From: Candidatus Latescibacterota bacterium | GTDB lineage: Bacteria; Latescibacterota; UBA2968 | Direction of reading: 5' to 3' | DNA: 64,000 bases | NCBI GenBank assembly: GCA_965204375.1 | Contig: OZ241986.1 | Location: 4,000,001-4,064,000 of the forward strand | Shown: piece by piece, positions 12,652 through 50,810 of the stretch | How positions within the stretch are numbered: position 1 is the first letter of the stretch | How the letters are laid out: each line of letters begins with the position of its first letter | Translations under genes and position numbers: made by a program | Notes under the pieces: generated by a model | Seen by the model: only the letters and a program-made list of their open reading frames with translations | Databases searched by the model: none | Told to the model about the DNA's origin: nothing

Positions 12652-13776
12652 ATGGCATATCTTACGTATAAGTACAAGCTGTATAGCCGTTGTGACCGCA
12701 ACAGGTATATCCATCAAGACATAGACGCTTTTGCAGGCGTGTATAACCACTTCATTGGGTTGCACAAGCGGTATTATCGGCGATTTAAGAAGTATCCAAG
12801 CAAATTCACTCTGATTAAGCACCTGACAAAGCTGAAAAAGACAGCGCGTTTTTCCCGCTGGCGTTTGTTGCCATCCCAAGCATTGCAGAATGTGATAGAA
12901 CGCATAGATTTTGGGTATCAGAAGTTCTTTGACAGAGAGAACAAGCGACCGCCTAAGTTTCGGTCTCGGTTCAGGTATCAGTCCTATACGCTGAAACAAG
13001 CAGGCTATGCGTTCTTGGATGGTAACAAAATTCAAATCGGCTTTGGTTTGTGTGGCACAATCAAGCGTATATTCAGGTATCACAAGAGTAGAGACTTCGA
13101 TAGAGAAAGTGTAAAGACAGTCACAATCAAACGTGACCGTGTAGGCGATTTGTGGTTATGTGTTGTTGCGAAGGCAGAAAGTTTCAAGTTGAGCATTGCC
13201 AAGACAGGTAAAACCGCAGGCTTTGACTTCGGCTTGAAAACATACTTGACTGCCTCTGACAATACACGGATGCAATCGCCTCAGTTTTTCAAACGCAACG
13301 CAAGGATGATCAAAAAGGCCAACCAGCAACTGTCCCGCAAGCAGAACGGCAGCAACAATCGTCACAGAGCAAGAAGCAACCTTGCCAGCGTGCATAGACG
13401 TGTTGCCAATCAACGCAGGAACTACCATTGGCAACTTGCCCATCACCTTTGCAAGCAATACGATGCCATGTATTTTGAGACGCTAAATATCAAGGCTATG
13501 CAAAGACTGTGGGGTAGAAAAATCAGTGACCTCGGCTTTTTTGACTTCTTGGCCATCCTCAAGTATGTCGCAGAAAAGACAGGCAAAGAATTTGAGCAAA
13601 TTGACAAATGGTTGCCAACGTCAAAGACGTGCTCTGCCTGTGGCAAGGTTAAAGAAAAACTTGCGTTGCGAGAAAGAATCTTTCGTTGTGGCTGTGGGCA
13701 TGTCATGGATAGAGACCTCAACGCAGCGATAAACATTCACAGGTGGGGACGTCCACCTTTGGAGGAGGCGACGTAA
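12652..13776 (+). CDS. tnpB: TnpB RNA-guided endonuclease (IS200/IS605 family, no tnpA)
   Basis: RuvC-I GFDFG, RuvC-II YFETL, Zn finger CSACG..CGCG, RuvC-III DRDLNAAINI. Confidence 0.93.
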   Translation: MAYLTYKYKLYSRCDRNRYIHQDIDAFAGVYNHFIGLHKRYYRRFKKYPSKFTLIKHLTKLKKTARFSRWRLLPSQALQNVIERIDFGYQKFFDRENKRPPKFRSRFRYQSYTLKQAGYAFLDGNKIQIGFGLCGTIKRIFRYHKSRDFDRESVKTVTIKRDRVGDLWLCVVAKAESFKLSIAKTGKTAGFDFGLKTYLTASDNTRMQSPQFFKRNARMIKKANQQLSRKQNGSNNRHRARSNLASVHRRVANQRRNYHWQLAHHLCKQYDAMYFETLNIKAMQRLWGRKISDLGFFDFLAILKYVAEKTGKEFEQIDKWLPTSKTCSACGKVKEKLALRERIFRCGCGHVMDRDLNAAINIHRWGRPPLEEAT

Positions 13777-17114: not shown

Positions 17115-18163
17115 ATGCCTCATTTCTCAAAATAGATAACCTGTCCAAAAATTATGGCGAAATCCGGGCACTCTCGGAAATCTCGCTCTCTCTTCACGCC
17201 GAAGAACTCCTCGTCGTCCTGGGCCCAACGGGTGCGGGCAAAACAACGCTCTTGCGCATCATCGCGGGCCTCGAAACAGCGGATACCGGGCGTATAACCG
17301 TCAACGGCACAGACATAATCCATCAGCTACCCGCAGAACGCGACATCGCCCTCGTCTTTCAGAACTTCTCACTCTACCCCAACAAAACCGTGCGCCAGAA
17401 CCTCGCATTTCCACTCCAGGCACCCGGACGCAAACTCTCCAAAGAAGAAATAGCAAACAGAATTTCCCACACCGCCGACCTGCTTCGCATAACCCCGCTT
17501 TTGGACCGACCTGCCACGCACCTGTCCGGCGGCGAAATGCAGCGCGTCGCAATCGGGCGCGCCATCGTGCGCCAACCCCAACTCTTTCTCCTGGACGAAC
17601 CCCTCACCAACCTGGATGCAAAATTGCGCGAAGTATTGCGCGTCGAACTCATCCGCCTCCAGCGCGACCTGGGCACACCCATGATTTACGTCACCCACGA
17701 CCGGGTAGAAGCCCTCTCAATGGGCGACCGAATCGCCGTATTGTCCGAAGGGAAAATCCTGCAAATCGGTTCCCCCGAAGAAATCTACCAGCAACCCAAT
17801 TCTCCGACCGTCGCCCGTCAACTCGGCTACCCCCCCATCAACACCATAGACGTCCACAAACAGCAAAACCAATGGTTCACAGCCTCGAATCAGCCCATCA
17901 CAACCGCAGACCGAAACGCCCCTTCAAACGCCACCCTCGGCATCCGTGCGGAAAATATTTCACCCAATGGAGGCAAAATCCCCGCGACCATCGAAGTCGT
18001 CGAAGACCTCGGCGCATCGACCATCTTGCTCGCAGACTGGGCGGGACTACCCATCCAGATCTTGACATCCGGCGAGCAACAATGGCGCGTTGGAGATGAA
18101 ATATACCCGTCTATTGATCCGGATCGCGTATTGGTGTGGGGAACCACCGATGAACAGGGATGA
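17111..18163 (+). CDS. Carbohydrate ABC transporter ATP-binding protein (MalK-like)
   Basis: GPTGAGKT, LSGGE, LLDEP, YVTHD. Confidence 0.93.
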   Translation: MNASFLKIDNLSKNYGEIRALSEISLSLHAEELLVVLGPTGAGKTTLLRIIAGLETADTGRITVNGTDIIHQLPAERDIALVFQNFSLYPNKTVRQNLAFPLQAPGRKLSKEEIANRISHTADLLRITPLLDRPATHLSGGEMQRVAIGRAIVRQPQLFLLDEPLTNLDAKLREVLRVELIRLQRDLGTPMIYVTHDRVEALSMGDRIAVLSEGKILQIGSPEEIYQQPNSPTVARQLGYPPINTIDVHKQQNQWFTASNQPITTADRNAPSNATLGIRAENISPNGGKIPATIEVVEDLGASTILLADWAGLPIQILTSGEQQWRVGDEIYPSIDPDRVLVWGTTDEQG

Positions 18164-18439
18164 AAACCCGTAGAGCAGGCGAGGACCTGCATCGCAATTA
18201 TACAATCGTTTGTCGTATAAAGTGAAAAAAGTGAAAAAATCTGATATACGAGCAATAATTCTAATATATGAGCAATCTTTTATAGTTGGAATTACAGACG
18301 CGATGGTATTATCATAAAAAAGCCGCTAACAAGACTCGGCAAAGTCATCTGTCAGCGGCGGTGAATATCTCAAGCTGATAACTTGAGAAGACCAAACCAA
18401 AGTAACGACCCGAAGCGCGATTGTCAATACAAAGTAAAA

Positions 18440-18487
18440 GAACAAAATGTTCAATCGAAAAGTGAAAAGTGAACAATGTGTTCACTT
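18440..18487. promoter_or_regulatory. Two GAACA-N3-TGTTC palindromes, candidate activator binding sites
   Basis: GAACAAAATGTTC at 18440-18452 and AAGTGAACAATGTGTTCACTT at 18467-18487; cores are 31 bp apart. Confidence 0.55.
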
Positions 18488-18583
18488 CTCAATTCGATAT
18501 TCAGCCTAACTTTTACTCGACAATAATATCTATGCGAAGTAAAAATAATGACTTACAAATATTATAATTCTAAAAGTTCACAT

Positions 18584-18599
18584 TGGCACACATGTTGCA
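18584..18599 (+). promoter_or_regulatory. Sigma54 (-24/-12) promoter
   Basis: TGGCAC-ACATG-TTGCA matches the TGGCAC-N5-TTGCW consensus, about 100 bp upstream of ATG 18700. Confidence 0.75.
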
Positions 18600-18699
18600 T
18601 ATATCTGTTTAAGCAGTAAAAAATCTGTATCGAATCGTGTGGAAAGCCATGCTCTGAACCTCAAATATTTAGACCGCGTTTATCGCACTGGAGAAAAAT

Positions 18700-19050
18700 A
18701 TGAACAAACAGAAAATACTGATTATAGATCACGATCCCGGCATTCTATCGATCCTTGTGGGATTTCTGAGCGATGAACCTTATGACATAAGCACAACGAG
18801 AGATGGGATAGAAGGGCTTGAAATATTGAGACGAGAGAAGATCGATCTCGCCATCGCTGAAATGTATATGGCAGGTCTCAATGGGGTAACTCTTTTGAAG
18901 TGTCTAAAGGAAGAGAAGATTCAGACAAACGTCCTGATCATGGAAAGTTTTGTGCCCCTGGAAGTAGCCGAAAAAATACTCAAAGCCGGTACTGCAGGCG
19001 TACAAGAGAATACATGGCATTTCTCCTACCCAGTATCGCACAAAAGTTAG
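18700..19050 (+). CDS. Stand-alone atypical receiver (REC) domain protein
   Basis: KILIIDHD...DGIEGLEIL...IDLAIAEMYMAGLNG. Phosphoacceptor Asp position is Glu and the KP motif is absent. Confidence 0.75.
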   Translation: MNKQKILIIDHDPGILSILVGFLSDEPYDISTTRDGIEGLEILRREKIDLAIAEMYMAGLNGVTLLKCLKEEKIQTNVLIMESFVPLEVAEKILKAGTAGVQENTWHFSYPVSHKS

Positions 19051-19241
19051 GCGTGGAGAAATTTAGACGCTTTCGGAAGGTGTTTGAGTTGAATGTTCAG
19101 AGGATTGTTTTTTGACGATTTTGGAATGCATCTCCCGCCCATAATTCTGAACGCCCGAAAGGAGGTACGAATAGAGAACTGATTGAATCACCGCATATCG
19201 TTGTTACTCAAGCAGTATAACCCTTAACAGGAGATTGTATC

Positions 19242-19784
19242 ATGTCAGAAAGTATTTTTGAACACACCACATCCATCGCAGGACTCACCTGCAAACCACT
19301 CGCCATTCTCTCTGAGACCATTTCACAAAAAGAAATGAACAAGGCGCGGGGTGGGGGTGGGAATGGACGAATTAAGATGCCGGGTGATGGCAAGATAGAT
19401 GACGGGATCACAGGTATGGATGAGCAAGACTGTCCCACATATGATTGTTACCCTGAGGGCGGCCACTTTGATACTGAGGGAAAAACCTTTACTCAGGTAG
19501 TTGGTCCTGATGTTGTCGAGGATCCGTTTGGTCCAATTTTAGGAGGCAGTGGCGGCGGTGGCGGCGGTGGTAGCTCAGAGTCAGATAATACCAACGATGA
19601 TGAGGGCCATTTGGGGGATTTTTGGAATTTTGACTTTTCAGATGACGGCACGGAAGATGACGGCACGGAAGATGAATGCACCGTCCCTTATGATTGTGGA
19701 GATGAAGAGAACGATGAAGGTAATAATGATGAAGGTAGCGGTCTGCCCGATGAGGAGAACAGTACGGAAGGTAATAATGGATAG
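19242..19784 (+). CDS. Putative secreted precursor with double-glycine leader and acidic Gly/Cys-containing core
   Basis: AGGAG RBS; residues 27-38 ISQKEMNKARGG fit LSxxELxxIxGG; C39 exporter 4 kb downstream. Confidence 0.75.
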   Translation: MSESIFEHTTSIAGLTCKPLAILSETISQKEMNKARGGGGNGRIKMPGDGKIDDGITGMDEQDCPTYDCYPEGGHFDTEGKTFTQVVGPDVVEDPFGPILGGSGGGGGGGSSESDNTNDDEGHLGDFWNFDFSDDGTEDDGTEDECTVPYDCGDEENDEGNNDEGSGLPDEENSTEGNNG

Positions 19785-19845
19785 TTGAGGGTTCCTCGCT
19801 TTGAGTAAGCTGGCTCGCAAGAATATAAAAACAAAAGGAGGTTCT

Positions 19846-19911
19846 TTCAGGCTTGCTGGAAGAACCTCTAAATTTTATACTGTGTAGTGCAAGAATGTAT
19901 CCAGACATATA
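19846..19911 (+). promoter_or_regulatory. Duplicated 66-bp promoter element, copy 1 (TTGCTG-N17-TATACT)
   Basis: 58/66 identical to 28069-28134; -35 at 19853-19858, -10 at 19876-19881. Confidence 0.7.
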
Positions 19912-19972
19912 ATAAGAATGTATCCGAACATATATACGAAGCAATCACTTCCAGCTTTGCCAGGTATCAGAT

Positions 19973-21334
19973 ATGAAAAAAATTTATGCTCTCATCTCAT
20001 TCCTCGTATGTGTCTTGTCGGCAGGCAGTTGCGCGGACTATCAGCTTATTGGGACGGAAGTATTATCTGAAGAACTCGTCGCGCAGCATTATACCATCAA
20101 TCCCAATCTCGACGTTGTTATCGTTGTAGATCGAACAACGCCGACCTTTGAATACCAGACCTTCTACTGCGCTGGCTGGGCAGATGAAGAGGAAGGTAAA
20201 CAAGGACGGCTACATTTCTTAGAGCATATCATGTCGGGTACCGGCAGTCAGGAATATGGGAGACTCAACCAAATCGTTAGCAAGAATGGAGGACAAAAAA
20301 ATGCTACTACCTATTATCATTTTACGCGCTTCACACTGAGATTTCCAAAGGACAAATTTGATCTCGCTGTTGAAATAGACTCAGACAGATTTTACAATAC
20401 AGTAATCAATGAAGAGGTCGTAGAAAAGGAAAAGAAAATCATCCTGACAGAAAGAAACCGCATGTTGGCAAACTTAACGCGAAGATTTACGTATTATTTT
20501 TTCGATTTGGTTTATAAAAAGAAGAATTTTGATGGCTTTGGTACTGAGGCGTTTATTAAACAACTCAATCCCATTGATTTGAGAGCGTATTATGAGAATC
20601 TTCTACGCCAACAAAAGAGATTGATCGTTGTCATCGGCGATGTAGATAGAGACTATGTCCTGATGAAATTGGACGAAGCGTATAGCTCTGCCAGTGCGAT
20701 GCAATCGCATGCAGACAGGAATGAGCCAGTACCGAGCCAATTGCCTGCATCTCAATTTCCCAACCCTGAAATCCTGGGCAGAAAGTTCAGGATTACTTCA
20801 AAGAACCTCAGTATTTCCAAGTTCAGAAAGAGTTGGGACACACCAAATTTAGGGCATCGAGACTATGTGGGATTGTCCATTATAGCCAACATTTTGAACA
20901 AAACTGCAAATTCCTTAAGATCTTATGCCGTTGACTCTGGACTTGCGAGAGTTTTCCACATAGAACTGAACTACTATAAAGGATTTGGTCTGATGAGTTG
21001 TACAGCAGACCTTCCCCATACTACGTCTCCAGACGCTATCCACGATATTATTCAGGTAGAGTTAGAGAAGCTGAAATCAATTTCTGAAGATGATCTTAAT
21101 GCAGCCCGCAATGAACTATTACACCGCCTGTATTCCACATTTTATGATCACTCAAGCATGGCTTATTCATTTGGGAAGGCATTTGCCCATGCCAACGATC
21201 CCCTCCTGTATCTCAAATTGATAAACGATATCAAATCCATTCAAAAAGAAAACATTCCGCGCATCATTAATCAATACCTGACGGATGATAATTCGATAAC
21301 TGTTTACCTGACGTTAAAAAAAAACAAAGAATAA
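19973..21334 (+). CDS. M16 (pitrilysin/insulinase) zinc peptidase, catalytic subunit, exported; copy 1
   Basis: Signal peptide; inverted zincin HFLEH; GG..NA.T; downstream EK..I.TE; VVIGDVD. Confidence 0.88.
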   Translation: MKKIYALISFLVCVLSAGSCADYQLIGTEVLSEELVAQHYTINPNLDVVIVVDRTTPTFEYQTFYCAGWADEEEGKQGRLHFLEHIMSGTGSQEYGRLNQIVSKNGGQKNATTYYHFTRFTLRFPKDKFDLAVEIDSDRFYNTVINEEVVEKEKKIILTERNRMLANLTRRFTYYFFDLVYKKKNFDGFGTEAFIKQLNPIDLRAYYENLLRQQKRLIVVIGDVDRDYVLMKLDEAYSSASAMQSHADRNEPVPSQLPASQFPNPEILGRKFRITSKNLSISKFRKSWDTPNLGHRDYVGLSIIANILNKTANSLRSYAVDSGLARVFHIELNYYKGFGLMSCTADLPHTTSPDAIHDIIQVELEKLKSISEDDLNAARNELLHRLYSTFYDHSSMAYSFGKAFAHANDPLLYLKLINDIKSIQKENIPRIINQYLTDDNSITVYLTLKKNKE

Positions 21335-21443
21335 TGTGATGTGTAACTTCAAAATACCAAGCATTGAGATATAGGGAATTGTTCTTAATGTTTTTTTGAT
21401 ACAAAAAAATAGATATGAAAGTTCGCCCAAAAGGCAAATAAAT

Positions 21444-22814
21444 ATGTCTCCAAAAGTGATATTTAGCTTTGTCCTGTGTTACATGGTTGGCGTCCTATCC
21501 GCTTCTCCTGTCTGCCTTTTTGCTGCGGAAAACGCCCCACGGACTGGTATAGACAGAGTTGCAATCCCCAATCACCATATTTTTTATCGCAACGACAAAC
21601 GCGCGCCGTTGACTAAAATTGAGATTGTCTTTCTCGGGGCCGGGAGAAATCAGGAACAGCCTTCTAAGATTGGGCTTGCGGAAATGGTTTCCTGGTTAAT
21701 GTGGGAATACGCTAAAAAGCAGGGATATATAGATCAACTATCAGCATTAGGTACCCGTCTGAATGTCATTTCCAGTACACAATACCACAGGATAGTCATT
21801 TCCACCTTATCGAAGAACTGCGGCGAGTCCATAGAAATAGTCCGCGATCTCATACACAGCCTCGAGTTTTCTGAGTCTAATTTAAAATATGTAAAAAAAC
21901 TGATGGTGGCTGATTACCAAAATGGTCTGCGGAGAAGTACCTACCCGCTTATGCGAGATTTTGCACTTGCACAAACAAAAGAACTAAAAAAAACGAACTC
22001 CTTAAAAACACTCGAAAACCTCTCACATGAGGACGTCAGTCAATATTATGATCGGTTTCTGAAAACCGATGTGGTGTTTTTTAAGGTGATCTCAAACCTC
22101 GATTCCACCCGGGTTGCGAAGTTGCTTCGTCCAATTACAGAGACACGGCAAAGGGGTGGTTTTGTGCATTCACTGAAAATCCTAACAACGGATTATAGCT
22201 CTGGTCCTTCGGCTTTTGTCTTTAATTCAAACATAAAAAGTGTGTTCTGCCATTGGTTGATGCCCTGTGGCAGTGTGGGTGAAAAAAATTATATCCCCAC
22301 ACTCATATCCGATACACTTCGAGAAGATACTCATGGCCTGGTTATTCGGCATTTTAGAGAAGAATTGGGATTGGTTTATGGTCCTTCTTCTGAGGTGCGA
22401 TCGTCCGGAGGTATCAGGTATCTTAATATTTACGCCGATCCCCAACTCCAGAACAGCGAAGAATTGATTGTAAAAATGTCCGACTTCATCCGAGGACTTT
22501 CCGATAATCCTCGCTTTTGGGAGTTCCTCAAGGAACGCCGTGAAATTCTAAAGGTGTCAGATGTCTTCAACCAGACACCACAGCGAAGTCTTGACCGTGA
22601 GGTAAATAAAACCATTTACAACAGACCACAGCGAAAAGGCGGTTATGATGCAGTCACTGATGCTGAGGTGCGTGCTTTTCTCGAAAAGTTTTTTGTGCCA
22701 GAAAATATGATCATGATCTTTGTCGGACCTAAGGATCACATCATAGACATTTTGAAGAGACACTTGCCTGAAGTTGATATTCGCGTTCACGATGTCAAAG
22801 AATTGATTGAGTAA
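21444..22814 (+). CDS. M16 peptidase non-catalytic subunit, exported; copy 1
   Basis: Signal peptide; G..QE...KIGLAEM without HxxEH; FREELGLVY motif; paralogous to 30645-32000. Confidence 0.82.
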   Translation: MSPKVIFSFVLCYMVGVLSASPVCLFAAENAPRTGIDRVAIPNHHIFYRNDKRAPLTKIEIVFLGAGRNQEQPSKIGLAEMVSWLMWEYAKKQGYIDQLSALGTRLNVISSTQYHRIVISTLSKNCGESIEIVRDLIHSLEFSESNLKYVKKLMVADYQNGLRRSTYPLMRDFALAQTKELKKTNSLKTLENLSHEDVSQYYDRFLKTDVVFFKVISNLDSTRVAKLLRPITETRQRGGFVHSLKILTTDYSSGPSAFVFNSNIKSVFCHWLMPCGSVGEKNYIPTLISDTLREDTHGLVIRHFREELGLVYGPSSEVRSSGGIRYLNIYADPQLQNSEELIVKMSDFIRGLSDNPRFWEFLKERREILKVSDVFNQTPQRSLDREVNKTIYNRPQRKGGYDAVTDAEVRAFLEKFFVPENMIMIFVGPKDHIIDILKRHLPEVDIRVHDVKELIE

Positions 22815-22832
22815 ACCGTCAGAAGCGGTGTA

Positions 22833-22856
22833 CAACTGGTCGATTTACAGACCAGT
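22833..22856. repeat. Hairpin AACTGGTC-N8-GACCAGTT within the duplicated segment (second copy 32020-32043)
   Basis: Identical hairpin follows both M16 pairs; possible terminator or processing stem. Confidence 0.65.
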
Positions 22857-23053
22857 TCATCAGGATGGGCAGGATGCAAGGATGATCAGGATGAGAACCC
22901 GCAGATCAGAAGTAGGTAGGCGATAGGCGGATGCAGAGGAAGGCAAGCACGGACCTGCTTGCGTGCGGACAACCGCCCTCGCAGGCAAGTGAACAGGATG
23001 AAAACCCGTAGAGCAGAGGACGTAGCAATAACCACTGACATGAGGAACCGACT

Positions 23054-23653
23054 GTGGAAGCGTTTATTATTTTGACCATTCTCATTATCGTATTTCTGGT
23101 GATCGGTGGCCGATGGGCAAAGAATTTCTTTGGTTGCTGCTGCCACGAGTGTGGAACCAAAATGCAGCCTTATGAGAAATTGTCCGATAGTGATAAGTCT
23201 GATATTCTGACATATTTCAGACGTTTTGAAGACCGCGAGCCAGACGTGGAGGGCATTTTTGCGTGTGGGAATTGCCTGCTGGTGTACGATGACTTTTCGG
23301 GCGAAAAGCGAACAATGGATGGCGACGAAAGGTCATTCTGCAAGGTGTGCAATTCCTATGGTGTATCGTATATAGGCCCCATGTCGTCTGACGATTTGGA
23401 GAAATTTCAGGAGCGGAACAAAAACCTGATTGAACCAATTGAGTGTCTCAGATGCAAAAGAAATCCTATAGGGGAGTATGACTGTGTGCCCTGCGACACA
23501 GAGATCAAGATAACGGCTTGTCGGCGTTGCTATTCGATCTATGCACAGATGCCAGTTAATGGTAGTCGATACAGATTTCAGGTCCTGCTTTCGGACAGGG
23601 AAATCATCAAAGATACACCCGACTCAAAATGGGGTGTATTTGAACCCGAGTAA
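23054..23653 (+). CDS. Cys-rich membrane-anchored protein (six CxxC), copy 1
   Basis: N-terminal TM; CHEC, CGNC, CKVC, CLRC, CVPC, CRRC; close paralogue at 32790. Confidence 0.8.
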   Translation: MEAFIILTILIIVFLVIGGRWAKNFFGCCCHECGTKMQPYEKLSDSDKSDILTYFRRFEDREPDVEGIFACGNCLLVYDDFSGEKRTMDGDERSFCKVCNSYGVSYIGPMSSDDLEKFQERNKNLIEPIECLRCKRNPIGEYDCVPCDTEIKITACRRCYSIYAQMPVNGSRYRFQVLLSDREIIKDTPDSKWGVFEPE

Positions 23654-23678
23654 ACGGTTATATGCGGTTTGAAACATT

Positions 23679-23711
23679 CTGGATTGCGGCTAAAACCATG
23701 CCGCAATGACA
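23679..23711. repeat. 33-bp REP-like palindrome, copy 1
   Basis: CTGGATTGCGGCTAAAACCATGCCGCAATGACA is the exact reverse complement of 53341-53373. Confidence 0.85.
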
Positions 23712-23781
23712 CCCATTATTCGTCACTTTTCACATCTATATCCGTGTTAATCCGTGTTAATCTGTAGCTGCATTTGAAAAC

Positions 23782-26700
23782 ATGATAAAACGAACCGACC
23801 TATATGCCTCTCTGAGACCTCATGCAGAGAAAATGCAGGTCAATCTCGGGGAGGTTTTATTTTCTGAAGGCGACAGGGGCGATTGTTTTTACTATGTCGT
23901 ATCCGGGCAACTCAGGGTTTTAACGAGAGACCCCAATAACGAGATGCAAACCCTGGGTTATCTCTTTCCCGGCGACCATTGCGGAGAAGGCGCGTTGCTC
24001 ACAGGTAAACCGCGCAGGGCAACGGTTCGAGCGGTTGAACCCTCAATCGTGCTAAAAATATCTCAAAGAGGCTTTCACGCCCTCGTATCAGAGCATCGGG
24101 AACTGACTCCTTACCTGCTCGACCAAGTGCAGGACATCGCCTATCGGAACTTCACAAAATTTCTGAAACTGGACACTGTAAACCTCCCTGAAGCCATGCA
24201 GCTTTTCTTTCAATGTCTGGAGCGGAAAGTTATTGCAGCAGAGGAAAAAGCATTATGGCGAGATGAAGAAGCAAAAGGACTCTATCTCATTGGGCGCGGA
24301 ACCTTGCAATTGAGAGAGGCGGACCAGCCCGCCAAAAGGTTAAAACCGGGCGACTTTTTTGGCGGCATAGATGATCAGCTCACTATTGAAACAGAAACAG
24401 AAGTCGTGCTCTACACCCTTTCGCACATCGCCCTCGCCAGAGTGCTTGAAAGTGCCCCCCAACTCATCCGGGTTTTCGAGAAGACCGATCAGAATGAACA
24501 AGAAGAACCGCTCAAGATATTGCCACAAAATGGTCGGATTAAAACGATAGAGATCGAGCCTGAAAATAGCATCTCGGATCACAGCCCTCGAAAACTGCGA
24601 AACTACATCACATTTCCCTACATCAAACAACACGATGAGACCGATTGCGGCGCGGCTTGTCTCGGCATGATCTGTCAGTATTATGGGCAATCCATTGGCT
24701 TAAACCGTCTGCGAGACATGGCCAATGTCTCGCGGGAAGGCACATCCCTATCTGCGCTTGCCGAAGCCGCTGAAAACCTGGGCTTTTTAACGCGAGGTGT
24801 GCGGATTGGATACAGTGAAATCGGAGACAGAGACCTGCCACTTATCGCGCACTGGGAAGGCTATCACTTTGTCGTTCTGTATCGGATCAGTTCAAAATAC
24901 GCATGGATAACAGACCCTGCACTTGGGCGCAGAAAAATTTCTCGCAAAGAATTTGAAGACAAATGGTCCAAACTCGCCTTAATACTCGAATACACCGACA
25001 AGGTCTCGAGATACAGGGGAAGAAAATCATCGTTCAGGCGGTTTTTCCCACTCGCCCGCCCATATCTCGGCATCCTCGTCGAAATCATGATGGCCTCCCT
25101 TTTGCTGAACCTCTTTGGCCTTGCCTCACCTCTTTTTACCCAGATGATCCTCGACCAGGTCCTCGTTCATCAAGATACCAGTCTGCTCAATCTCATGCTT
25201 TTAGGCATGATCATTATCGCCTTATTTCGGATCGCCACATCTTCGCTGCGCAACTACCTGATAGGGTATGTGGGGGCGCGCATCAGTATCTCGATGTTAT
25301 CGCACATCTACCACCATCTTCTCCGTCTGCCCATGCGATTTTTCGCCCTCCGCAGAACCGGTGAAATCATGACGCGCTTTCGAGAAAGCCAGTACTTGAG
25401 AAGCTTATTGACAGAAACGGCTATTTCAGCCGTCCTTGATGCGGTCATGATTTTTGTCTATTTGGGTCTGATGTTCTATTACCACACCACTTTGACACTT
25501 TGGGTTTTGGCATTCATACCGCTTAGCATTATCCTGACATTGATCTACACCCCCATCCTCAAGTCCATCAACCAACGATCTTTTCTCGCCCGTTCGGAAT
25601 GGTCATCCGTACTCATCGATTCCCTGCGTGGCATTGAAGTCATAAAAACCCTCGCAGTCGAAAAATCCACGCGATGGTTATGGGAAGAACGCTTGACCCA
25701 GGAAATCAAAATTGGTTTTACCGCGATCAAAACAAATATGCTATTTGGGTCTTTTGGACAGTTGAACAAGGTTTTGGGTAGCACCATCGTGCTCTGGTAT
25801 GGCGCGAACCTGGTCATTCAAGGCGACTTATCAGTCGGTCAGCTAATCGCTTTCAATATGCTCAGTGGCAGTGTATTGGGACCGATCATGGGATTGATTA
25901 ACCTGTGGCCACAGATTCAACTGGCGAAAATAGGACTGGACCGATTAAACGACATCTACGATATGCGAACCGAGTCATCGCGCAACCGCAACTATTCGGT
26001 TCAACTCACAGACGTAGAGGGACACATCGCATTTGACAACGTGTTCTTCCGGTATGGATCGGGATCGACAGAGCCTTATGTCTTAAGCGATATAAATTTG
26101 GACATAAGACCCGGACAGAAAGTAGCCATAGTAGGTCGTAGCGGTGCGGGCAAGACAACACTGGTAAAACTCATACCCCGACTATTTGATCCCACAGAGG
26201 GATCAGTCACCCTCGATGGTACAGACCTGCGCGAATTGGAACAAGCAGAGATCGCATTTAAAAAAGCTGAATTTGATCTGCAACAAACCCTGCCGCAAAA
26301 AAGAATTCTGGCAAAAGAGACCATCTCCGCGCTTGAACATCGCGTTCGTGTCATGCAAGCCGCGATGCAGACCTACCGGGAAGCACTTGGGAATCATACA
26401 GAAACGTCTCAACCTCCCGATATCGAGATCGAAATACAATTCCGATCCGCAGAAGTAGAACATTTGAAACAGCGATATGAGCAAAACCAAAAATTGTACG
26501 AAAAGAAACTCATCAGCCTTGCGGCACTAAATGAAGCCAAAGTTCGCTATCTGAGCGCGTTGGCAGAACTGCCCGCGCGGATGGCAGAGATCAATCGCTA
26601 TGAGGTATCCCTAAAAGACTTAAAACGCCAAATCCTCGAAGAACGACTCGAACTTGAACGCACGCGAGCCAATTTCCAAAATGCTTATGACATTGCAGCA

Positions 26701-27222
26701 GCCAGACTCAAACAGGCGAGACAAGCGGTTAATCGATCCGTTGACGCAGACATCGATTTAATTCTCGCACCCGAATCGGGAATCGTCACACAAGTACTGG
26801 TCAATACACCCGGTCAAGTAGTCAATAAAGGCGAGACACTGGTAACCATTGCGCCAGCCTCGACACCGATTGTAGCCGAAGCTCTGATCTTGAACAAAGA
26901 CGTGGGTCTGCTGTCATCTGGACAAAAGGTAAAACTCAAATTTGAAGCATTTCCATTTCAGGACTACGGCATCCAACACGGCTATTTGAGACAGATTTCA
27001 CCTGATGCAATGGGCGATGAGGGTTCGGGAACCGTGTTTAGAGGTATTATTGATCTTGAGAACACGACCATTCTTGTACACGGCGAGGAAAAAGCGTTCA
27101 TGTTCGGCATGAAGGGCACAGCAGAAATCATAACAGATCGCCAGTCCATTTTGATGCTCGCGCTCAATCCATTGCGACAATTGCGCGAAATAGCCGCACT
27201 TTCGCCAGAGGCTGAAAAATAA
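23782..27222 (+). CDS. cNMP-binding / C39 peptidase / ABC transporter fused in frame to HlyD-type adaptor C-terminus
   Basis: cNMP domain (GDHCGEGALL..PRRATVRA), QHDETDCGAACL..HFVV..DP, TM domain, Walker A GRSGAGKTT, then coiled coil and HlyD motifs ILAPESGIV, LKFEAFPFQDYG, ISPDA. Confidence 0.85.
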   Translation: MIKRTDLYASLRPHAEKMQVNLGEVLFSEGDRGDCFYYVVSGQLRVLTRDPNNEMQTLGYLFPGDHCGEGALLTGKPRRATVRAVEPSIVLKISQRGFHALVSEHRELTPYLLDQVQDIAYRNFTKFLKLDTVNLPEAMQLFFQCLERKVIAAEEKALWRDEEAKGLYLIGRGTLQLREADQPAKRLKPGDFFGGIDDQLTIETETEVVLYTLSHIALARVLESAPQLIRVFEKTDQNEQEEPLKILPQNGRIKTIEIEPENSISDHSPRKLRNYITFPYIKQHDETDCGAACLGMICQYYGQSIGLNRLRDMANVSREGTSLSALAEAAENLGFLTRGVRIGYSEIGDRDLPLIAHWEGYHFVVLYRISSKYAWITDPALGRRKISRKEFEDKWSKLALILEYTDKVSRYRGRKSSFRRFFPLARPYLGILVEIMMASLLLNLFGLASPLFTQMILDQVLVHQDTSLLNLMLLGMIIIALFRIATSSLRNYLIGYVGARISISMLSHIYHHLLRLPMRFFALRRTGEIMTRFRESQYLRSLLTETAISAVLDAVMIFVYLGLMFYYHTTLTLWVLAFIPLSIILTLIYTPILKSINQRSFLARSEWSSVLIDSLRGIEVIKTLAVEKSTRWLWEERLTQEIKIGFTAIKTNMLFGSFGQLNKVLGSTIVLWYGANLVIQGDLSVGQLIAFNMLSGSVLGPIMGLINLWPQIQLAKIGLDRLNDIYDMRTESSRNRNYSVQLTDVEGHIAFDNVFFRYGSGSTEPYVLSDINLDIRPGQKVAIVGRSGAGKTTLVKLIPRLFDPTEGSVTLDGTDLRELEQAEIAFKKAEFDLQQTLPQKRILAKETISALEHRVRVMQAAMQTYREALGNHTETSQPPDIEIEIQFRSAEVEHLKQRYEQNQKLYEKKLISLAALNEAKVRYLSALAELPARMAEINRYEVSLKDLKRQILEERLELERTRANFQNAYDIAAARLKQARQAVNRSVDADIDLILAPESGIVTQVLVNTPGQVVNKGETLVTIAPASTPIVAEALILNKDVGLLSSGQKVKLKFEAFPFQDYGIQHGYLRQISPDAMGDEGSGTVFRGIIDLENTTILVHGEEKAFMFGMKGTAEIITDRQSILMLALNPLRQLREIAALSPEAEK

Positions 27223-27223
27223 A

Positions 27224-28045
27224 ATGGCTGATTCAATTGATCCCGTCATCATTCAAATAAACGAGACACAAATCCGTTTATCTCATATCGTGAAATCAAT
27301 GCGGGCGGCTAACAAGGACAGCTTGCACGACCTCTTTACGCAACGCGGTCTGATCTTCCAAATTGCCCAACGAGAAAAAATTAAAATTTCTCGTGAGGAA
27401 CTGCAAAAGAGTATAGACCAATGGCGGTATAAAAACAGATTGGAAAGTGTTGAGGATACAGAAAACTATTTATCACAACGCAATATCTCCTTCACTGACA
27501 TGGCACGGGAAATTGAATACCAGATGCTCCAGGAGCGATTGAAAACGCAAATCACCACTGAGCAAATTCAAGCGCATTTTGCAAGCCAGAAATTGGCGTC
27601 TGAACGGCGGGAAATATGCTGGATTCTGGTCCAGGAACGAGACATTGCCGAAGAGATCGCCATGCAGATCAGAGACGGAGGACGAGATTTTCATACCCTC
27701 GCGCGTCAATATTCCCTCGATGAGCGCACGCGCCCTGCCAGCGGGTATCTCGGTCGCCAGAGCCGACGAGACTTGCTCCATGATGTTGCGCCCTTATTAT
27801 TTGCCGCCGAAGTAGGGTCGGTCATTGGCCCCATAAAAGTAGAAACAGGCTATGCGCTGTATTATATTCAACAACACTGCCCCGCTGTACTCGATGAAGC
27901 CACAAAAGCGCGTTGTGTGCAGGAACTCTATCAACTTCGTTTAAAACGCGAAGCAAAGCGCAGTCACATATCGTATCCATTCCTATATTCGATATACACA
28001 GAGGACGCCTTTCCCAAAGAGAATGTGCATATCTCAGAGAAGTGA
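27224..28045 (+). CDS. PpiC/parvulin-type peptidyl-prolyl isomerase (foldase)
   Basis: DFHTLARQYSLD...SGYLG...LFAAEVGSVIGPIKVETGY. Confidence 0.82.
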   Translation: MADSIDPVIIQINETQIRLSHIVKSMRAANKDSLHDLFTQRGLIFQIAQREKIKISREELQKSIDQWRYKNRLESVEDTENYLSQRNISFTDMAREIEYQMLQERLKTQITTEQIQAHFASQKLASERREICWILVQERDIAEEIAMQIRDGGRDFHTLARQYSLDERTRPASGYLGRQSRRDLLHDVAPLLFAAEVGSVIGPIKVETGYALYYIQQHCPAVLDEATKARCVQELYQLRLKREAKRSHISYPFLYSIYTEDAFPKENVHISEK

Positions 28046-29185: not shown

Positions 29186-30673
29186 ATGATAAAAACCTGC
29201 GCGATCATCTCATTCCTCGTATGCATCTTGCCAACGGGCACTTGCCATTCTTATCAGCTTGTTGGAGCGGAAGCATTATCTGAAGAACTCGTCGCGCAAC
29301 ACTACACCATCAACACCAACCTCGACGCCGTCATCGTTGTAGATAGAACAATCCCAACCTTTGAATACCATACCTACTACAGTGCTGGCTCGACAGATGA
29401 AGAGGAAGGGAAACAAGGACGGCTACACTTCTTAGAGCACATCATGGCAGGTACTGGAAGCCATGAGCCGGGAAAACTCAACGAAATTATCGTCAAGAAT
29501 GGAGGTCAAAATTATGCCGCTACAACTATCCATCATATGTACTTAAGAATGCGATTTCCGAAGGACAAATTTGACCTTGCAGTTGAAATAGACCGCGATA
29601 GATATTACGGCACGTTGATCAATGAAGAGGTCGTTGAAAACGAAAAGAAAATTGTACTAACGGAAAAAAGTCGTAATTCAGCAAACTCAAACAGAAAATT
29701 CTCCAATCGTTTTTGGGGCCTGGTCTATAAAAAAAAGGATTTTAGTGGCGTTGGGACTGAGGACTTTATTAAACAACTCGAAGCCGATGATTTGGAAGAT
29801 TACTATGATAATTTCCTGCGCCGCCAGAAGAGATTGGTCGTGGTGGTCGGCGATGTGGATATGGACCATGTCCTGACCAAACTGGACGAAGCCTATGGCA
29901 ATGAGCAAATACCAGACGAATTATCGAGCGAATCACCTTCTCCTCAATTTCCCAATCCTGAAATACTCGAAAAAAAAGTAAAAGACACTTCAAAAAGTCT
30001 CCGTATTGCCAAATTCAGGAAAAGTTGGCAAACCCCTCATTTAGGCCATCGCGACTATGCAACCTTGCTCATTCTTGCTCGCATTATGACCAAAACCTCT
30101 AATTCCTTGCGATCTTCTGTGATTGATGCCAAGCTCGCCCGGATTTTCAGGGTGTCGTTTTACCACTATAAAGGATTTAGTTTGCTGAGTTGCACGGCAG
30201 ACCTGCCGACCGACGCTTCCATAGATGCTATAGAGAATGCTATCCAAACAGAATTGGAGGAAATTAGAGCGAGCGGTGTCTCTGAGGACGAATTTACTGC
30301 GGCCCAAAATCTGCAATTAAAATCAATGTATTCCAGATTTTATGACAGATCGAGAATGGCCCTTGAGTTCGGGCGGGCATTCGCCCATGCCAACGATCCC
30401 TTACTATATCCAAAAATGATAAAAGATCTCAAATCTGCCCGCAGAGACGACATACCGCGCCTTGTAGATCAATATCTGACGAATGACAATTCCATAACCC
30501 TCTCACTAACGATGCCAGAAAAAAAACGGTCTCTAATCACCGTGATATTTGGGAGTATTCTCATTATTTTTCCAGCTATTATGGTTCTATTTCCTGTGAT
30601 ATGGTTTATCAGAAAACTGATTAGTAAATCCTCCCCAAAGGCCAATGAATATGCTCCTGAAAGTGATACTTAG
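29186..30673 (+). CDS. M16 zinc peptidase, catalytic subunit, exported, with C-terminal TM anchor; copy 2
   Basis: HFLEH; paralogue of 19973; hydrophobic tail ITVIFGSILIIFPAIMVLFPVIWFI. Confidence 0.88.
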   Translation: MIKTCAIISFLVCILPTGTCHSYQLVGAEALSEELVAQHYTINTNLDAVIVVDRTIPTFEYHTYYSAGSTDEEEGKQGRLHFLEHIMAGTGSHEPGKLNEIIVKNGGQNYAATTIHHMYLRMRFPKDKFDLAVEIDRDRYYGTLINEEVVENEKKIVLTEKSRNSANSNRKFSNRFWGLVYKKKDFSGVGTEDFIKQLEADDLEDYYDNFLRRQKRLVVVVGDVDMDHVLTKLDEAYGNEQIPDELSSESPSPQFPNPEILEKKVKDTSKSLRIAKFRKSWQTPHLGHRDYATLLILARIMTKTSNSLRSSVIDAKLARIFRVSFYHYKGFSLLSCTADLPTDASIDAIENAIQTELEEIRASGVSEDEFTAAQNLQLKSMYSRFYDRSRMALEFGRAFAHANDPLLYPKMIKDLKSARRDDIPRLVDQYLTNDNSITLSLTMPEKKRSLITVIFGSILIIFPAIMVLFPVIWFIRKLISKSSPKANEYAPESDT

Positions 30674-32000
30674 TTTTGCCCTGTGCTACGTGGTTGGTAT
30701 CCTGTCCGCTTATGCAGAGATTTCTAACCACCAAATTTTTTATCGCCAAGACAAACGCGCCCCGTTGACCAAAATTGAAATCGTCTTTCTCGGAGCGGGA
30801 AGCAACCAGGAATCGCCTGCTCAAAATGGACTGGTAGAGATAGCCTCAAAGTTGATTTGGAAGGACATAAAAAAGCGAGGGTACATAGATCAACTGGCAG
30901 TATTAGGCACTGAGTTATATGTCTTCGCCAACACAACATCCCTGACCGTATCCATTTCTACCCTGTCTGAGAATTGCGCTGAGTCCATAGAAATAGTCCG
31001 CGATTCCATACACAACTTCGATTTTTCCGAGTCCGACCTGGAAGATGTGAAAGAGCGAGAGGTGACTAATTATCGAAATGATCGGGAAAGAAATACCGCT
31101 AATCTTATGAGAAATTTTGCACTTGCACGAACAAAAGGAATAAAGAAACTCAGATCCTTAAAAACGCTGAAAAACCTTTCTGCAAAGGACATCAGACAGT
31201 ATTATGCGCGGCTTTTGAAAACAGAAGTGGTGTTTTTTAAGATACTCTCAAACCGAGATTCCACCGAGATCACCAAAATGCTTCATCCAATTATAGAAAA
31301 ACGAGAGACCCGACGACAGGCAGGTGGGTTTGTGCATTCATTGGCACCTTCAGAGGCCAATTATTATTTTGGTCCTTCGGCTTTTGTCTTTGAGAATTAT
31401 TCAAACTTAAAAAATGTTTTCTGTTATTGGCTGATCCCCTATGGGAGTATAGGGGAAACAAATTATATTTCTCCAATGATATCCATGATGCTTGGGCGAT
31501 CTGGTGCCCAAGGGTTGCTCTACAAATATTTTAGAGAAGAGTTGGGATTGGTCTATAGTACTGCTTGCAGTTATCGATCATCAAAAAATATCAGGTTTCT
31601 CGAAATTTATGCAGATCCCCAGTTACAGAACAGCGAAGAACTGATTGTAAAAATGTCCGACTTCATCCGAGGGCTTCCCGACAACCCCCGCTTTTGGGAG
31701 GGAATAAAAGCGTTGCGTGAGAATAGCAATATCGCCTATGCCCATGTCCATGAACGATTGACACCACAACAAAGACTGAACAGGGAGGTATATAGCGCCA
31801 TCTATAATCCTCCAAGCCGCAAAGGCGGTTATGATTCGGTTACTGATGAGGAGGTGTATGCCTTTCTCGAAAAATTCTTTGTCCCGCAGAATATGATCAT
31901 GATCTTTGTCGGTCCGAAGGATTACATCATAGACATTCTGAATAGACACTTGCCTGAAGTTGATATTCGCGTTCACAATACCAAAGAATTGATTGAGTAA
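30645..32000 (+). CDS. M16 peptidase non-catalytic subunit, exported; copy 2
   Basis: No HxxEH; FREELGLVY; paralogue of 21444. Confidence 0.82.
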   Translation: MNMLLKVILSFALCYVVGILSAYAEISNHQIFYRQDKRAPLTKIEIVFLGAGSNQESPAQNGLVEIASKLIWKDIKKRGYIDQLAVLGTELYVFANTTSLTVSISTLSENCAESIEIVRDSIHNFDFSESDLEDVKEREVTNYRNDRERNTANLMRNFALARTKGIKKLRSLKTLKNLSAKDIRQYYARLLKTEVVFFKILSNRDSTEITKMLHPIIEKRETRRQAGGFVHSLAPSEANYYFGPSAFVFENYSNLKNVFCYWLIPYGSIGETNYISPMISMMLGRSGAQGLLYKYFREELGLVYSTACSYRSSKNIRFLEIYADPQLQNSEELIVKMSDFIRGLPDNPRFWEGIKALRENSNIAYAHVHERLTPQQRLNREVYSAIYNPPSRKGGYDSVTDEEVYAFLEKFFVPQNMIMIFVGPKDYIIDILNRHLPEVDIRVHNTKELIE

Positions 32001-32218
32001 ACTGTCTGAAGCGGTGTACAACTGGTCGATTTACAGACCAGTTCATCAGAGCCTGCACTGGAGTGATTCTATCCAGTGATGGGCAGGATGGAAGGATGGC
32101 CAGGATGAGAATCCGTAGATCATGAGTATCGGTTGTTTACTTTGCGACTGGGTTTGGATATATTTTATGGGTGACCATTACTGGGATGCCTCTCCCCTTT
32201 TTAAGGAGGACAATCACA

Positions 32219-32449
32219 ATGAGCAATGATATAACTACAGAAGCGACAGTCACGCTGAGCATTCAGCAACTGGAAGGACTTATCCGCAAGGTGGTTCGTG
32301 AAGAACTCATCGAATTGGTAAAACAGAAACCAGAAATTTTCAACCTCGATAAGAACGCTCCGCTTTATGAGGATATGGAGGATATTCTTAAAAGAAAAAA
32401 ATCAGGTCAATTGAAGTTTTATACGCACGCAGAAATTTGGGATGAATGA
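32219..32449 (+). CDS. Putative antitoxin
   Basis: AAGGAGG RBS; 76 aa, LEGLIRKVVREEL...YTHAEIW; overlaps the toxin start. Confidence 0.6.
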   Translation: MSNDITTEATVTLSIQQLEGLIRKVVREELIELVKQKPEIFNLDKNAPLYEDMEDILKRKKSGQLKFYTHAEIWDE

Positions 32450-32771
32450 ATATCAAGCGTTTTATGAGGGTCGATTCGCCCGAAACCTTTCGCGCTATTC
32501 GAATATACGCCAGCGCATCAAGCGAAGAGTTGAGCAGATTCTCAAAAACCCCTATGATCGCACAGAACGTCTTGGGCAGGTTTCTGGAGGATTAGATTTG
32601 CGGGGTTGCCGCAGTGCTCGGGTGGATAGAAACTTCAGATTGATTTTTGTTATCTGTGAAGAATGTCGGTATATACAAGCGTGTCAGTATTGCCTTTGCG
32701 AGGGCAGAGAAGATAAAACAATTGTTTTCTTAACGGTTGGGCCACACAATAGGGCTTATACGATGAGATGA
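32442..32771 (+). CDS. RelE/ParE-like toxin with Cys-rich insertion
   Basis: ILKNPY, LRGCRSARVDRNFRLIF, FLTVGPHNRAY; insert CEEC..CQYC.C. Confidence 0.7.
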   Translation: MNEYQAFYEGRFARNLSRYSNIRQRIKRRVEQILKNPYDRTERLGQVSGGLDLRGCRSARVDRNFRLIFVICEECRYIQACQYCLCEGREDKTIVFLTVGPHNRAYTMR

Positions 32772-32789
32772 ACATAGAACGGATAAAAA

Positions 32790-33392
32790 ATGGAAGCGTT
32801 TATTATTATGATCATCATCGTTACCGTAGTTCTGGTGCTTGGTGGCCGATGGGCAAAAAATTTCTTTGGTTGCTGCTGCCACGAGTGTGGATCCAAAATG
32901 CAACCATTCGAAAAATTGTCCAATGGTGATAAGTCCGATATTCTGGCTTACTTTAAGCGGTTTGAGGACCGCGAGCCAGACGCGGAGGGCATTTTCGTTT
33001 GTAACAATTGCCTGATTGTGTACGATGATTTTTCGGGCGAAAAACGAACGATGGATGGTGACGAAAGATCTTTCTGCAAGGTGTGCAACTCTTCAGGTGT
33101 ATGGTATATAGGCTCCATAGTGTCTCCTAATGAATTGGAGAAATTCCAGGAACGGAATAAAAACCTGATTGAACGAGTTGAGTGCCTGCGATGCCAAAGA
33201 AAACCGGCAGGGTTTTGGGACTGTATTCCATGCGACACAGAGATCAAGATAACGGCTTGCCGACGTTGCTATTCCATTTATACCTGGATGCCTTTTGGCA
33301 GAAGTCGATACAGATTTCATGTCCTGCTTTCGGACAGGGAAATCATCAAGGACTCACCCGACTCAAAGTGGGGTGTATTTGAGTTCGAGTAA
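32790..33392 (+). CDS. Cys-rich membrane-anchored protein (six CxxC), copy 2
   Basis: Colinear paralogue of 23054-23653. Confidence 0.8.
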   Translation: MEAFIIMIIIVTVVLVLGGRWAKNFFGCCCHECGSKMQPFEKLSNGDKSDILAYFKRFEDREPDAEGIFVCNNCLIVYDDFSGEKRTMDGDERSFCKVCNSSGVWYIGSIVSPNELEKFQERNKNLIERVECLRCQRKPAGFWDCIPCDTEIKITACRRCYSIYTWMPFGRSRYRFHVLLSDREIIKDSPDSKWGVFEFE

Positions 33393-48068: not shown

Positions 48069-48070
48069 GC

Positions 48071-48466: not shown

Positions 48467-48484
48467 TCTCTAATACGAAACTAT

Positions 48485-48919: not shown

Positions 48920-48921
48920 TT

Positions 48922-50798: not shown

Positions 50799-50810
50799 TT
50801 CTCGTTTGCT

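Follow-up and report, generated by a model that had tools for sequence, protein, structure and literature searches.

Our analysis concerns a 64,000-nucleotide stretch of a Candidatus Latescibacterota genome (assembly GCA_965204375.1, contig OZ241986.1, positions 4,000,001 to 4,064,000 of the forward strand), which we refer to here as the window and in whose own coordinates all positions are given. [quoted passage not shown] The ORF is translated without internal stops into 180 residues, comprising a 38-residue leader that ends in double glycine (GG) and a 142-residue core. A preliminary description, made from the DNA letters alone, had read it as a GG precursor with about 40 acidic and 4 basic core residues, and the exact composition of residues 39-180 (24 Asp and 16 Glu; 3 Lys and 1 Arg; 4 Cys) agrees with this count. 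The computed isoelectric point (pI) of the core is ~4.05, and its computed charge at pH 7 is ~-36. Translation also confirmed the leader motif: residues 27-38 read ISQKEMNKARGG, with Ile at -12, Ser at -11, Glu at -8, Met at -7 and Ala at -4 ahead of GG. Since this motif occupies residues 27-38, the core is predicted to start at nucleotide 19356, and the exported body would begin with GGNGRIK.

Within the core, we recovered the glycine run GGSGGGGGGGSS (residues 101-112) and two Cys-pair motifs, EQDCPTYDC at 61-69 and EDECTVPYDC at 143-152, all previously described, and Tandem Repeats Finder placed a 15-bp duplication at 19640-19675. The DDGTE unit encoded by this duplication is doubled in 4 of the 28 aligned full-length homologues and single in the others, indicating a recent in-frame slip. 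GGAG is present 5' of the ATG. With a fraction of Asp plus Glu (D+E) of 0.24, the precursor is the most acidic among the 68 window ORFs of at least 120 residues (median 0.119); this acidity, the existence of database relatives and the kept position upstream of an M16 pair establish the ORF as a genuine gene rather than a chance reading frame. Antisense ORFs over the body, for example at 19489-19944 (-, 151 residues), had no Pfam match and were rejected as genes. They also occur opposite the homologue in one related locus (L001), as expected across GAN-rich codons, and the conserved leader and the codon-level conservation both fall in the + frame. The precursor itself matched 0 families in Pfam and NCBIfam at E <= 10. 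In 2 of the 8 family members tested, the GG region gave a sub-threshold match to the TIGR04149 leader (E 0.008-0.027).

Table 1. Features of the precursor locus and of the adjacent orphan cassette (positions in the window).
Feature	Position	Strand	Basis
Cassette-start element, ~210 nt, noncoding, nearly invariant	18225..18435	+	alignment, promoter scan
Receiver-domain protein, stand-alone response regulator, 116 aa	18700..19050	+	Pfam Response_reg, E 4.8e-15
Double-glycine leader, residues 1-38 (MSESIFEHTTSIAGLTCKPLAILSETISQKEMNKARGG)	19242..19355	+	translation and family alignment
Acidic core, 142 aa, with stop codon	19356..19784	+	translation, composition, AF2, charge-hydropathy
9-bp repeat (GGCGGTGGC, 2.9 copies) coding for the Gly run	19545..19570	+	Tandem Repeats Finder
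15-bp tandem repeat, 2.4 copies, 100% match, coding for DDGTE twice	19640..19675	+	Tandem Repeats Finder
Terminator-/attenuator-like hairpin, 14-pair stem, then AAATTTTATA	19837..19869	+	fold z-score -2.7 for 19780-19900
M16a, active M16 zinc-peptidase subunit	19973..21334	+	Pfam; HFLEH at residue 81
M16b, non-catalytic M16 partner	21396..22814	+	Pfam; no HxxEH; signal peptide; pI ~9
u199, N-terminal transmembrane helix and six conserved CxxC pairs	23054..23653	+	sequence, conserved Cys columns
Exporter: two cNMP-binding domains, C39, ABC membrane domain and truncated ATPase, fused in frame to HlyD	23782..27222	+	Pfam
PpiC/SurA-like rotamase	27224..28045	+	Pfam Rotamase, E 5.5e-12
Orphan M16 pair: M16c 29186-30673, M16d 30645-32000	29186..32000	+	Pfam, motifs
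u200, u199 paralogue of the orphan cassette	32790..33392	+	sequence comparison

A word-indexed database search returned 69 relatives of the precursor at E <= 0.01, 36 of which match only ~20-40% of the query at 51-89% identity, in 35 cases over the leader. When 1.84 billion cluster representatives were searched exhaustively with HMMER, 30 matched at E <= 0.001; they are 40-213 residues long except for one spurious 874-residue low-complexity match. These lengths indicate that long fused forms do not occur, and the shorter members have the look of fragments. No relative carries a label beyond "hypothetical protein." A scan of species-representative genomes yielded nine loci (L001 to L009), of which seven are in Candidatus Latescibacterota metagenome-assembled genomes (MAGs), one is labelled "uncultured bacterium" and one lies on an 11-kb contig binned as Curvivirga. 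The family was found almost only in Latescibacterota-labelled MAGs. Across the flanking ABC-importer genes, the DNA of L003 and that of the window are 93.7% identical, which places the window in the same lineage. Full-text literature searches revealed no description of the family, and passages of a Latescibacterota MAG paper report generic antiSMASH calls of the RiPP-like type (peptide made on the ribosome and modified after translation) only (PMC12993501).

Pooling the database proteins with ORFs from the loci gave 86 distinct leader-bearing sequences, 81 of them with bodies of at least 100 residues. Members were picked by the pattern TCxPL…EMxxxxGG, so that these positions are invariant by construction, whereas this selection has no bearing on the remaining leader positions or on the phmmer alignments. 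The conserved leader with variable cores that the preliminary description had expected in relatives was indeed observed, with median pairwise identities of 0.84 for the leader and 0.24 for the body. Bodies are <30% identical in 2457 of 3240 pairs, and leaders in those same pairs still have a median identity of 0.82. In the family leader consensus, MSENIFEHTTSIAGLTCKPLSILSETISPQEMSMARGG, conservation is 93-100% at positions -30 to -11, except at -26 (73%) and -18 (51%), and it spans -30 to -1, far beyond the usual GG motif. Toward the cleavage site, -4 is Ala or Val in 94% of the sequences, -7 is Met (100%, pattern-required) and -12 is Ile (98%). GG closes the leader in 81/81 members, again as the pattern requires, and its independent support comes from the phmmer matches over the leader.

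The 81 bodies are 100-181 residues long (median, 140), with D+E fractions of 0.11-0.47 (median, 0.28), a median of 4 Lys plus Arg and a median net charge of -37; the two bodies with a D+E fraction of 0.11 look frame-shifted. When scored with 25 hand-defined motifs taken from the alignments, they fall into 43 module architectures. A block termed j-k-k2 is paired with four tail types, and the FWDFDF and DECTVPYDCG modules, NCEYCDDENC and WDWLTG are each found with three. Since internal modules are joined to several different C-terminal tails, recombination is needed to explain the architectures. Between the window and L001, nonsynonymous (dN) and synonymous (dS) substitution in the leader amounts to 0.085 and 0.266, respectively, and in the body to 0.167 and 0.158 over 135 codons; across 66 locus pairs the ratio of means for the leader is 0.29. 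A body dN/dS of ~1 combined with lasting acidity implies that the composition is kept and the sequence is not.

These body statistics bear on the suggestion, made in the preliminary description, that the two related Cys-pair motifs flanking the glycine linker mark a two-cassette precursor from which two YDC peptides with disulfide loops are set free. The flanking arrangement and the even number of Cys residues in 70/81 bodies speak for it. However, the N-terminal module (CxxYDCYP) is present in 10/81 bodies and the C-terminal one (DECTVPYDCG) in 28/81, another 10/81 figure being that of bodies without any Cys, and the motifs lack repeated flanking recognition sequences. Neither a radical SAM enzyme nor LanM is encoded at the locus, and the ESM Atlas look-alike of the precursor, a QH-AmDH gamma subunit, was rejected, its score of 0.78 being within the range obtained with shuffled sequences. 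We thus consider such a two-peptide precursor very improbable.

Structure prediction with AlphaFold2 (AF2) from a 28-row alignment gave the precursor a mean local confidence (pLDDT) of 47 and a global score (pTM) of 0.11, with no secondary structure save for four residues beside GG. By charge-hydropathy analysis, the core and 80/81 family bodies fall beyond the boundary, on its disordered side. The body is therefore probably a disordered polyanion, as judged from these predictions, which favor the earlier proposal of a disordered, secreted acidic protein over a pore-forming bacteriocin. One premise of that proposal, that GG-leader bacteriocins are short and cationic, was too narrow: passages of Wang, Fewer & Sivonen (2011) give 28-164 residues for predicted cyanobacterial GG precursors and describe those of the NHLP and N11P type as mostly negatively charged (PMC3140520).

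The exporter ORF encodes 1146 residues, and its Peptidase_C39 domain (E 6.7e-40) lies 4 kb downstream of the precursor, in line with the expectation of a GG-leader precursor near a C39 transporter. This domain is homologous to those of the PCATs LahT150 (6mpz, E 1e-21), PCAT1 (4ry2/6v9z) and ComA (3k8u), with E values ranging up to 7e-15, and in the alignment to them its DCGAAC, HFVV and DPA positions are preserved. We take the Cys, His and Asp of these motifs to be the C39 catalytic residues, and the domain is competent-looking by this comparison. Hydrophobic residues at -4, -7, -12 and -15 are described for PCAT substrates in passages of PMC7018657, and three of these four positions fit here. 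The family thus resembles the substrates of the solved PCATs in its GG end and in hydrophobic residues at -4, -7 and -12, and differs in a leader of 38 residues that is conserved to -30, with an invariant T-C-K-P-L at -23 to -19, and in a 142-residue cargo that is polyanionic and predicted to be disordered. The transporter itself differs by two extra cyclic-nucleotide (cNMP)-binding domains and, in the window copy, by truncation and fusion to HlyD. On the leader and transporter sequences, we regard the precursor as very likely to be the cargo of a PCAT.

The gene directly downstream of the precursor, M16a, encodes a protein with a lipoprotein-type signal at its N-terminus (…LSAGSC), and a lipobox-type N-terminus was found in 10/10 tabulated M16a genes, beginning at either the ORF start or an internal Met. 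The solved structure closest to M16a is 3amj_C, annotated as "zinc peptidase active subunit" (E 8e-18), and MPP-beta comes next. The likely true start of M16b is the ATG at 21444, and HxxEH is present in no M16b examined. The pair thereby resembles the heterodimeric M16B peptidases (Sphingomonas 3amj, MPP and PttP1/PttP2), which likewise combine one HxxEH subunit with one lacking it. It differs from them in that both subunits carry signal peptides, most M16a proteins have a lipobox and a C-terminal anchor, the substrate is a putative one and the pairs occur in several diverged copies per locus. According to passages of PMC10885120, PttP1/PttP2 process ribosomal peptides.

The membrane protein u199 has no known family: a Pfam search at E <= 10 gave nothing meaningful, and its 39 relatives are all unnamed or "hypothetical" (65-93% identity, plus one 37% fragment). 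Its CxxC domain probably forms three zinc ribbons. AF2 gave u199 a pLDDT of 45, with only helix 2-26 confident, and a predicted complex of u199 residues 27-199 with three Zn and leader residues 1-60 scored 0.00, in a run without controls that therefore speaks neither for nor against binding of the leader by u199. The best ESM Atlas score for u199, 0.84, was within the shuffled-sequence range and was dropped. The rotamase reached 70.9 bits against NCBIfam TIGR04500, "putative peptide maturation system protein," under the cut-off of 180. No modifying enzyme (LanM, radical-SAM, YcaO or similar domain) is encoded between 11442 and 33392, and a modified RiPP of the lanthipeptide, radical-SAM or QhpC-like type accordingly finds no modifying enzyme in the cluster.

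The same unit, or cassette, recurs across the loci in the order precursor, M16a, M16b and u199, followed by the PCAT, HlyD and PpiC genes. Among 12 precursor positions, an M16a with HxxEH lies no more than 7 kb downstream in 11, and both subunits are found in 10; the exceptions are L002, which runs off its contig, and L003, which has an M16b fragment only. Loci contain 1-4 precursors, with four within 5 kb in L007. The chromosome OZ244960.1 harbors two loci (L001 and L008), which are separated by ~340 kb and have a transporter each. Identity to the window decreases from the transporter (91-95%) over PpiC (87-90%) to M16a (62-71%), and the M16 cores are 54-87% identical between cassettes. M16a and M16b co-vary (Mantel rho 0.49, p 0.007). 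Decay was seen repeatedly: a 5'-truncated precursor in L003 (4582-4806), a 20-residue precursor tail in L005 (11457-11516) ~900 bp past an early-ending precursor, and, in L008 (15341-15938), a u199 gene divided between two reading frames.

A similar set of genes has been described before. Passages of Wang, Fewer & Sivonen (2011, PMC3140520) present cyanobacterial "group II" clusters in which genes for a long-type ABC transporter with an N-terminal cyclic-nucleotide-binding (CAP_ED) region and a C39 peptidase, HlyD, SurA/rotamase and M16 lie near GG precursors, and remark that clusters of this kind are often truncated and rearranged. The set found here (cNMP-C39 ABC, HlyD, rotamase and M16) is the same, and all four lie within 19973-28045. 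The differences are the host, which is here a member of the Latescibacterota; the precursor, which is unrelated to HetP-like, NHLP and Nif11 precursors (no Pfam or NCBIfam match) and, at 180 residues, above their range of 28-164; and the presence of an additional CxxC membrane protein, often a receiver gene, and multi-cassette arrays. In the pneumococcal rtg locus, as described in passages of PMC7018657, several GG peptides are served by one transporter, RtgAB, and the leaders carry an upstream motif at -22 to -18. Several GG peptides per transporter, a far-upstream leader motif and the existence of loci with nonfunctional transporters are thus shared traits, as far as those passages go. In contrast to the family here, the rtg system is Gram-positive, has short peptides and neither M16 nor HlyD, and shows no sequence relationship.

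We propose, with a probability of roughly 0.55, that the precursor is a PCAT cargo whose body is secreted as a disordered polyanion, with probable trimming by M16a/M16b. The leader motif, the C39 catalytic positions, the gene order, the M16 signal peptides and the acidity and variability of the family are shown by the sequences. We infer the cleavage of the precursor, its export and disorder, the action of M16 on it and its final role, in the following sequence of events. The C39 domain would bind the 38-residue leader and cut it after Gly38, and the 142-residue body (GGNGRIK…) would be exported unfolded via ABC/HlyD, possibly under gating by cyclic nucleotides that bind the two cNMP domains at the N-terminus of the transporter. 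Once outside the cytoplasm, this body would be a disordered polyanion (~-36) whose two small Cys-pair loops could oxidise. The membrane- or lipid-anchored M16a/M16b would then most likely trim or degrade it; that the pair acts on the body at all we hold to be slightly less probable than an even chance. Our best guess for the role of the body is that, by means of bulk negative charge and short linear motifs, it would bind cations or else a cationic partner belonging to a host or neighbour, and not act as a pore-forming bacteriocin. This guess is prompted by acidity being the one property that selection keeps while the sequence drifts at dN/dS ~1, and we consider a charge-based extracellular role conceivable rather than likely.

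Several observations weigh against this explanation, including the state of the exporter in the window. In 6/8 loci with a visible junction, ABC (988-991 residues) and HlyD (436-471 residues where complete) are separate genes, the HlyD copy of L008 running past the locus end. In the window, "…DGTDLRE" just after Walker A continues into the HlyD coiled coil "…LEQAEIAF," with the junction at 26230-26240, and 861-1143 bp of the six separate-gene loci are missing. The junction lies inside CGCGAATT, which is found at both breakpoints in intact loci, the signature of a microhomology deletion. LSGGQ and Walker B (Q-loop to H-loop) are lost together with the HlyD membrane anchor, and the window copy does not pass as an intact, ATP-hydrolysing transporter, since its ATPase domain ends after Walker A. 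The window exporter is disabled by this deletion, and export in this genome would thus need a second locus elsewhere. A different in-frame ABC-HlyD fusion, broken just before Walker B, is present in L004 (15553-19296), and the recurrence of such fusions raises the question of how often loci of this kind get switched off. Furthermore, a C-terminal hydrophobic anchor is present in 8/11 M16a genes and missing from the M16a of the window; together with the truncated exporter, this loss suggests that the window locus may be decaying. Beyond the M16a stop, in the same frame and past further stops (21334-21444), lies a remnant resembling the usual M16a cytoplasmic tail (…KANKYVSKSD).

Other points on the same side concern the leader, the body and its processing. 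Leader position -15 is Ser in 96% of the members and not hydrophobic, with Leu or Ile at -16/-17 instead, and low AF2 confidence obtained from a 28-row alignment is weak evidence for disorder. Ca2+ or metal binding had been raised in the preliminary description; none of the known Ca2+-binding repeats (EF-hand, RTX, thrombospondin type 3 and Excalibur) was matched in Pfam at E <= 10, and no cation-binding domain was detected in the body. Body identity did not correlate positively with that of M16a (Mantel rho -0.26, p 0.93) or M16b (rho -0.10, p 0.70), in tests based on 10 cassettes with body identities near the floor, and a matched protease-substrate pairing is therefore not supported. Finally, if export ran through a type I system that has a channel in the outer membrane, the body would skip the periplasm, the predicted site of M16.

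The truncated exporter also invites another explanation, namely that the precursor in the window is a relic of a decaying locus, maybe transcribed, with neither export nor current function. The fusion by deletion, which removed Q-loop to H-loop and the HlyD anchor, the lost M16a anchor and a second cassette without a precursor would fit this, as would the decay in relatives (the L003 precursor and M16b fragment, the L005 tail, the L008 u199 and the L004 fusion). Yet the ORF, its ribosome-binding site, the leader and the downstream hairpin are all intact. Moreover, since OZ244960.1 has two transporter loci, a second exporter may exist outside the window, and passages of PMC7018657 indicate that pneumococcal rtg loci persist with nonfunctional transporters. 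We judge a mere relic to be quite unlikely, if somewhat less so than the two-peptide precursor.

The second cassette just mentioned is an orphan one at 29186-33392, which contains no precursor and no receiver gene; tblastn with all 86 family members detected neither another leader nor another body within the window. A TPR/DUF6340-like lipoprotein gene (28145-29131) lies ahead of the orphan cassette, into which a ParE-like toxin-antitoxin-type pair (32171-32771) is inserted. In L003, a ParE-like pair follows straight after PpiC and the orphan cassette is absent.

In a rival reading, the locus would encode an antibacterial bacteriocin or class II microcin-like toxin, with M16 and/or u199 providing self-protection and orphan M16/u199 modules being kept as orphan immunity. 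Class II microcins such as MccV are small and have membrane or periplasmic targets, and the mature peptides of class II bacteriocins and microcins are below ~10 kDa and usually cationic or hydrophobic. The family here shares with MccV-type microcins that its members are Gram-negative GG-leader proteins with PCAT/HlyD-type export, predicted in their case, and no heavy modification. Beyond the GG leader and the PCAT/HlyD exporter, a toxin would be consistent with a multi-copy, hypervariable and recombining family, with M16c/M16d and u200 lacking a precursor, with mobile elements and the ParE-like pair in and around the locus, and with frequent gene decay, which is common in competition loci. The body, on the other hand, is much longer than such microcins and fails on both size and charge: its 142 anionic residues (~-36) contain no hydrophobic or amphipathic stretch and are predicted to be unfolded, unlike known pore formers and microcins. 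The passages searched in PMC12219008 yielded nothing on microcin charge. M16 similarity does not track body similarity, and a body dN/dS of ~1 fits low constraint equally with an arms race. u199 and the M16 pair are immunity candidates by position only. We consider a toxin improbable.

About equally improbable, in our estimate, is a role as a pro-signal, in which the acidic body would be a carrier and M16 would free from it short modules (DFWDFDF…DECTVPYDCGD or the tail GSGLPDEENSTEGNNG) as strain-specific signals that are read via the receiver protein and a cNMP-gated exporter. A receiver gene precedes five of the precursors seen, namely the one in the window and, as homologues, those in L001, L003 and L004 (two copies). 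Discrete conserved modules and approximately eight tail types in otherwise variable bodies would suit signals, each cassette has its own extracytoplasmic endopeptidase pair, and M16 heterodimers of the PttP1/PttP2 type mature class III lanthipeptides, according to passages of PMC10885120. But no sensor kinase or peptide importer is encoded in the cassette, the cassettes of L005-L009 lack the receiver gene, no conserved cleavage motif flanks the modules and M16 and body do not covary. At the phospho-acceptor site of the receivers (identified by eye from the DLxxxD motif), Glu is found in the window (18700-19050), in L003 (9052-9354) and in one L004 copy, and Asp in the other two copies (among L001 9087-9389, L004 3205-3507 and L004 9051-9353).

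The noncoding parts of the cassette are conserved as well. Between the precursor and M16a sits the hairpin with its T-rich tail, and the same hairpin follows the precursor in 8/10 cassettes examined, with a compensatory change from GGAGG/CCTCC to GAAGG/CCTTC in L002 and L009. It fits an attenuator that yields more precursor than enzyme. Upstream, the cassette-start element is present in seven copies (one each in the window, L001 and L006, and two each in L003 and L004) at the start of cassettes and contains the promoter-like hexamers TTGGAA and TATCAT separated by an 18-nucleotide spacer at 18286-18315, followed by two hairpin-forming stretches. Since RNAalifold found 25 pairs and 0 compensatory changes in it, an RNA fold of the cassette-start element is not supported. 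A search of 17900-20100 against Rfam gave sub-threshold hairpin matches only, and no family for this element.

Elsewhere in the window, three transposase-type genes are found, of DDE group 1, IS605 OrfB/TnpB-like and Mutator-family type (9701-11059, 12652-13776 and 51947-53131, respectively), and a PD-(D/E)XK nuclease-family gene lies at 11442-12509. Two tandem UvrA-like genes encode proteins of 960 and 916 residues (39715-45365). A defence-island-like stretch at 47475-58020 comprises genes for a SocA/Panacea-domain protein, a DUF6527 protein beside a DUF6791-ThiF (E1-like) protein, an M78 peptidase with a helix-turn-helix partner, and a HerA-like DUF87 ATPase, followed by a 453-residue protein of no assigned family and a DNA methylase fragment.

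Small bacteriocins and pheromones are the cargoes with which PCAT systems are associated, and here we find, clade-wide in an uncultured phylum, long, polyanionic and apparently unfolded putative cargoes. Taken a step further, the cassettes might constitute a recombining repertoire of secreted, polyanionic disordered effectors, and thus a new functional class of PCAT cargo that is neither toxin nor classical pheromone and would act on a target in a host or neighbour by way of charge and short linear motifs, although we consider this wider proposal unlikely as it stands. A near-invariant leader would then be set on combinatorial acidic modules, each cassette having its own anchored M16 and zinc-ribbon membrane protein, a picture to which we assign the same low likelihood. 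If export proves true, the family would widen the known cargo range of the PCAT route and provide a natural case of modular diversification in a secreted disordered protein. It would also offer a candidate substrate for the M16 pairs that have been unexplained in "group II" clusters since 2011, and its compact leader might find use as a tag with which acidic proteins are secreted.

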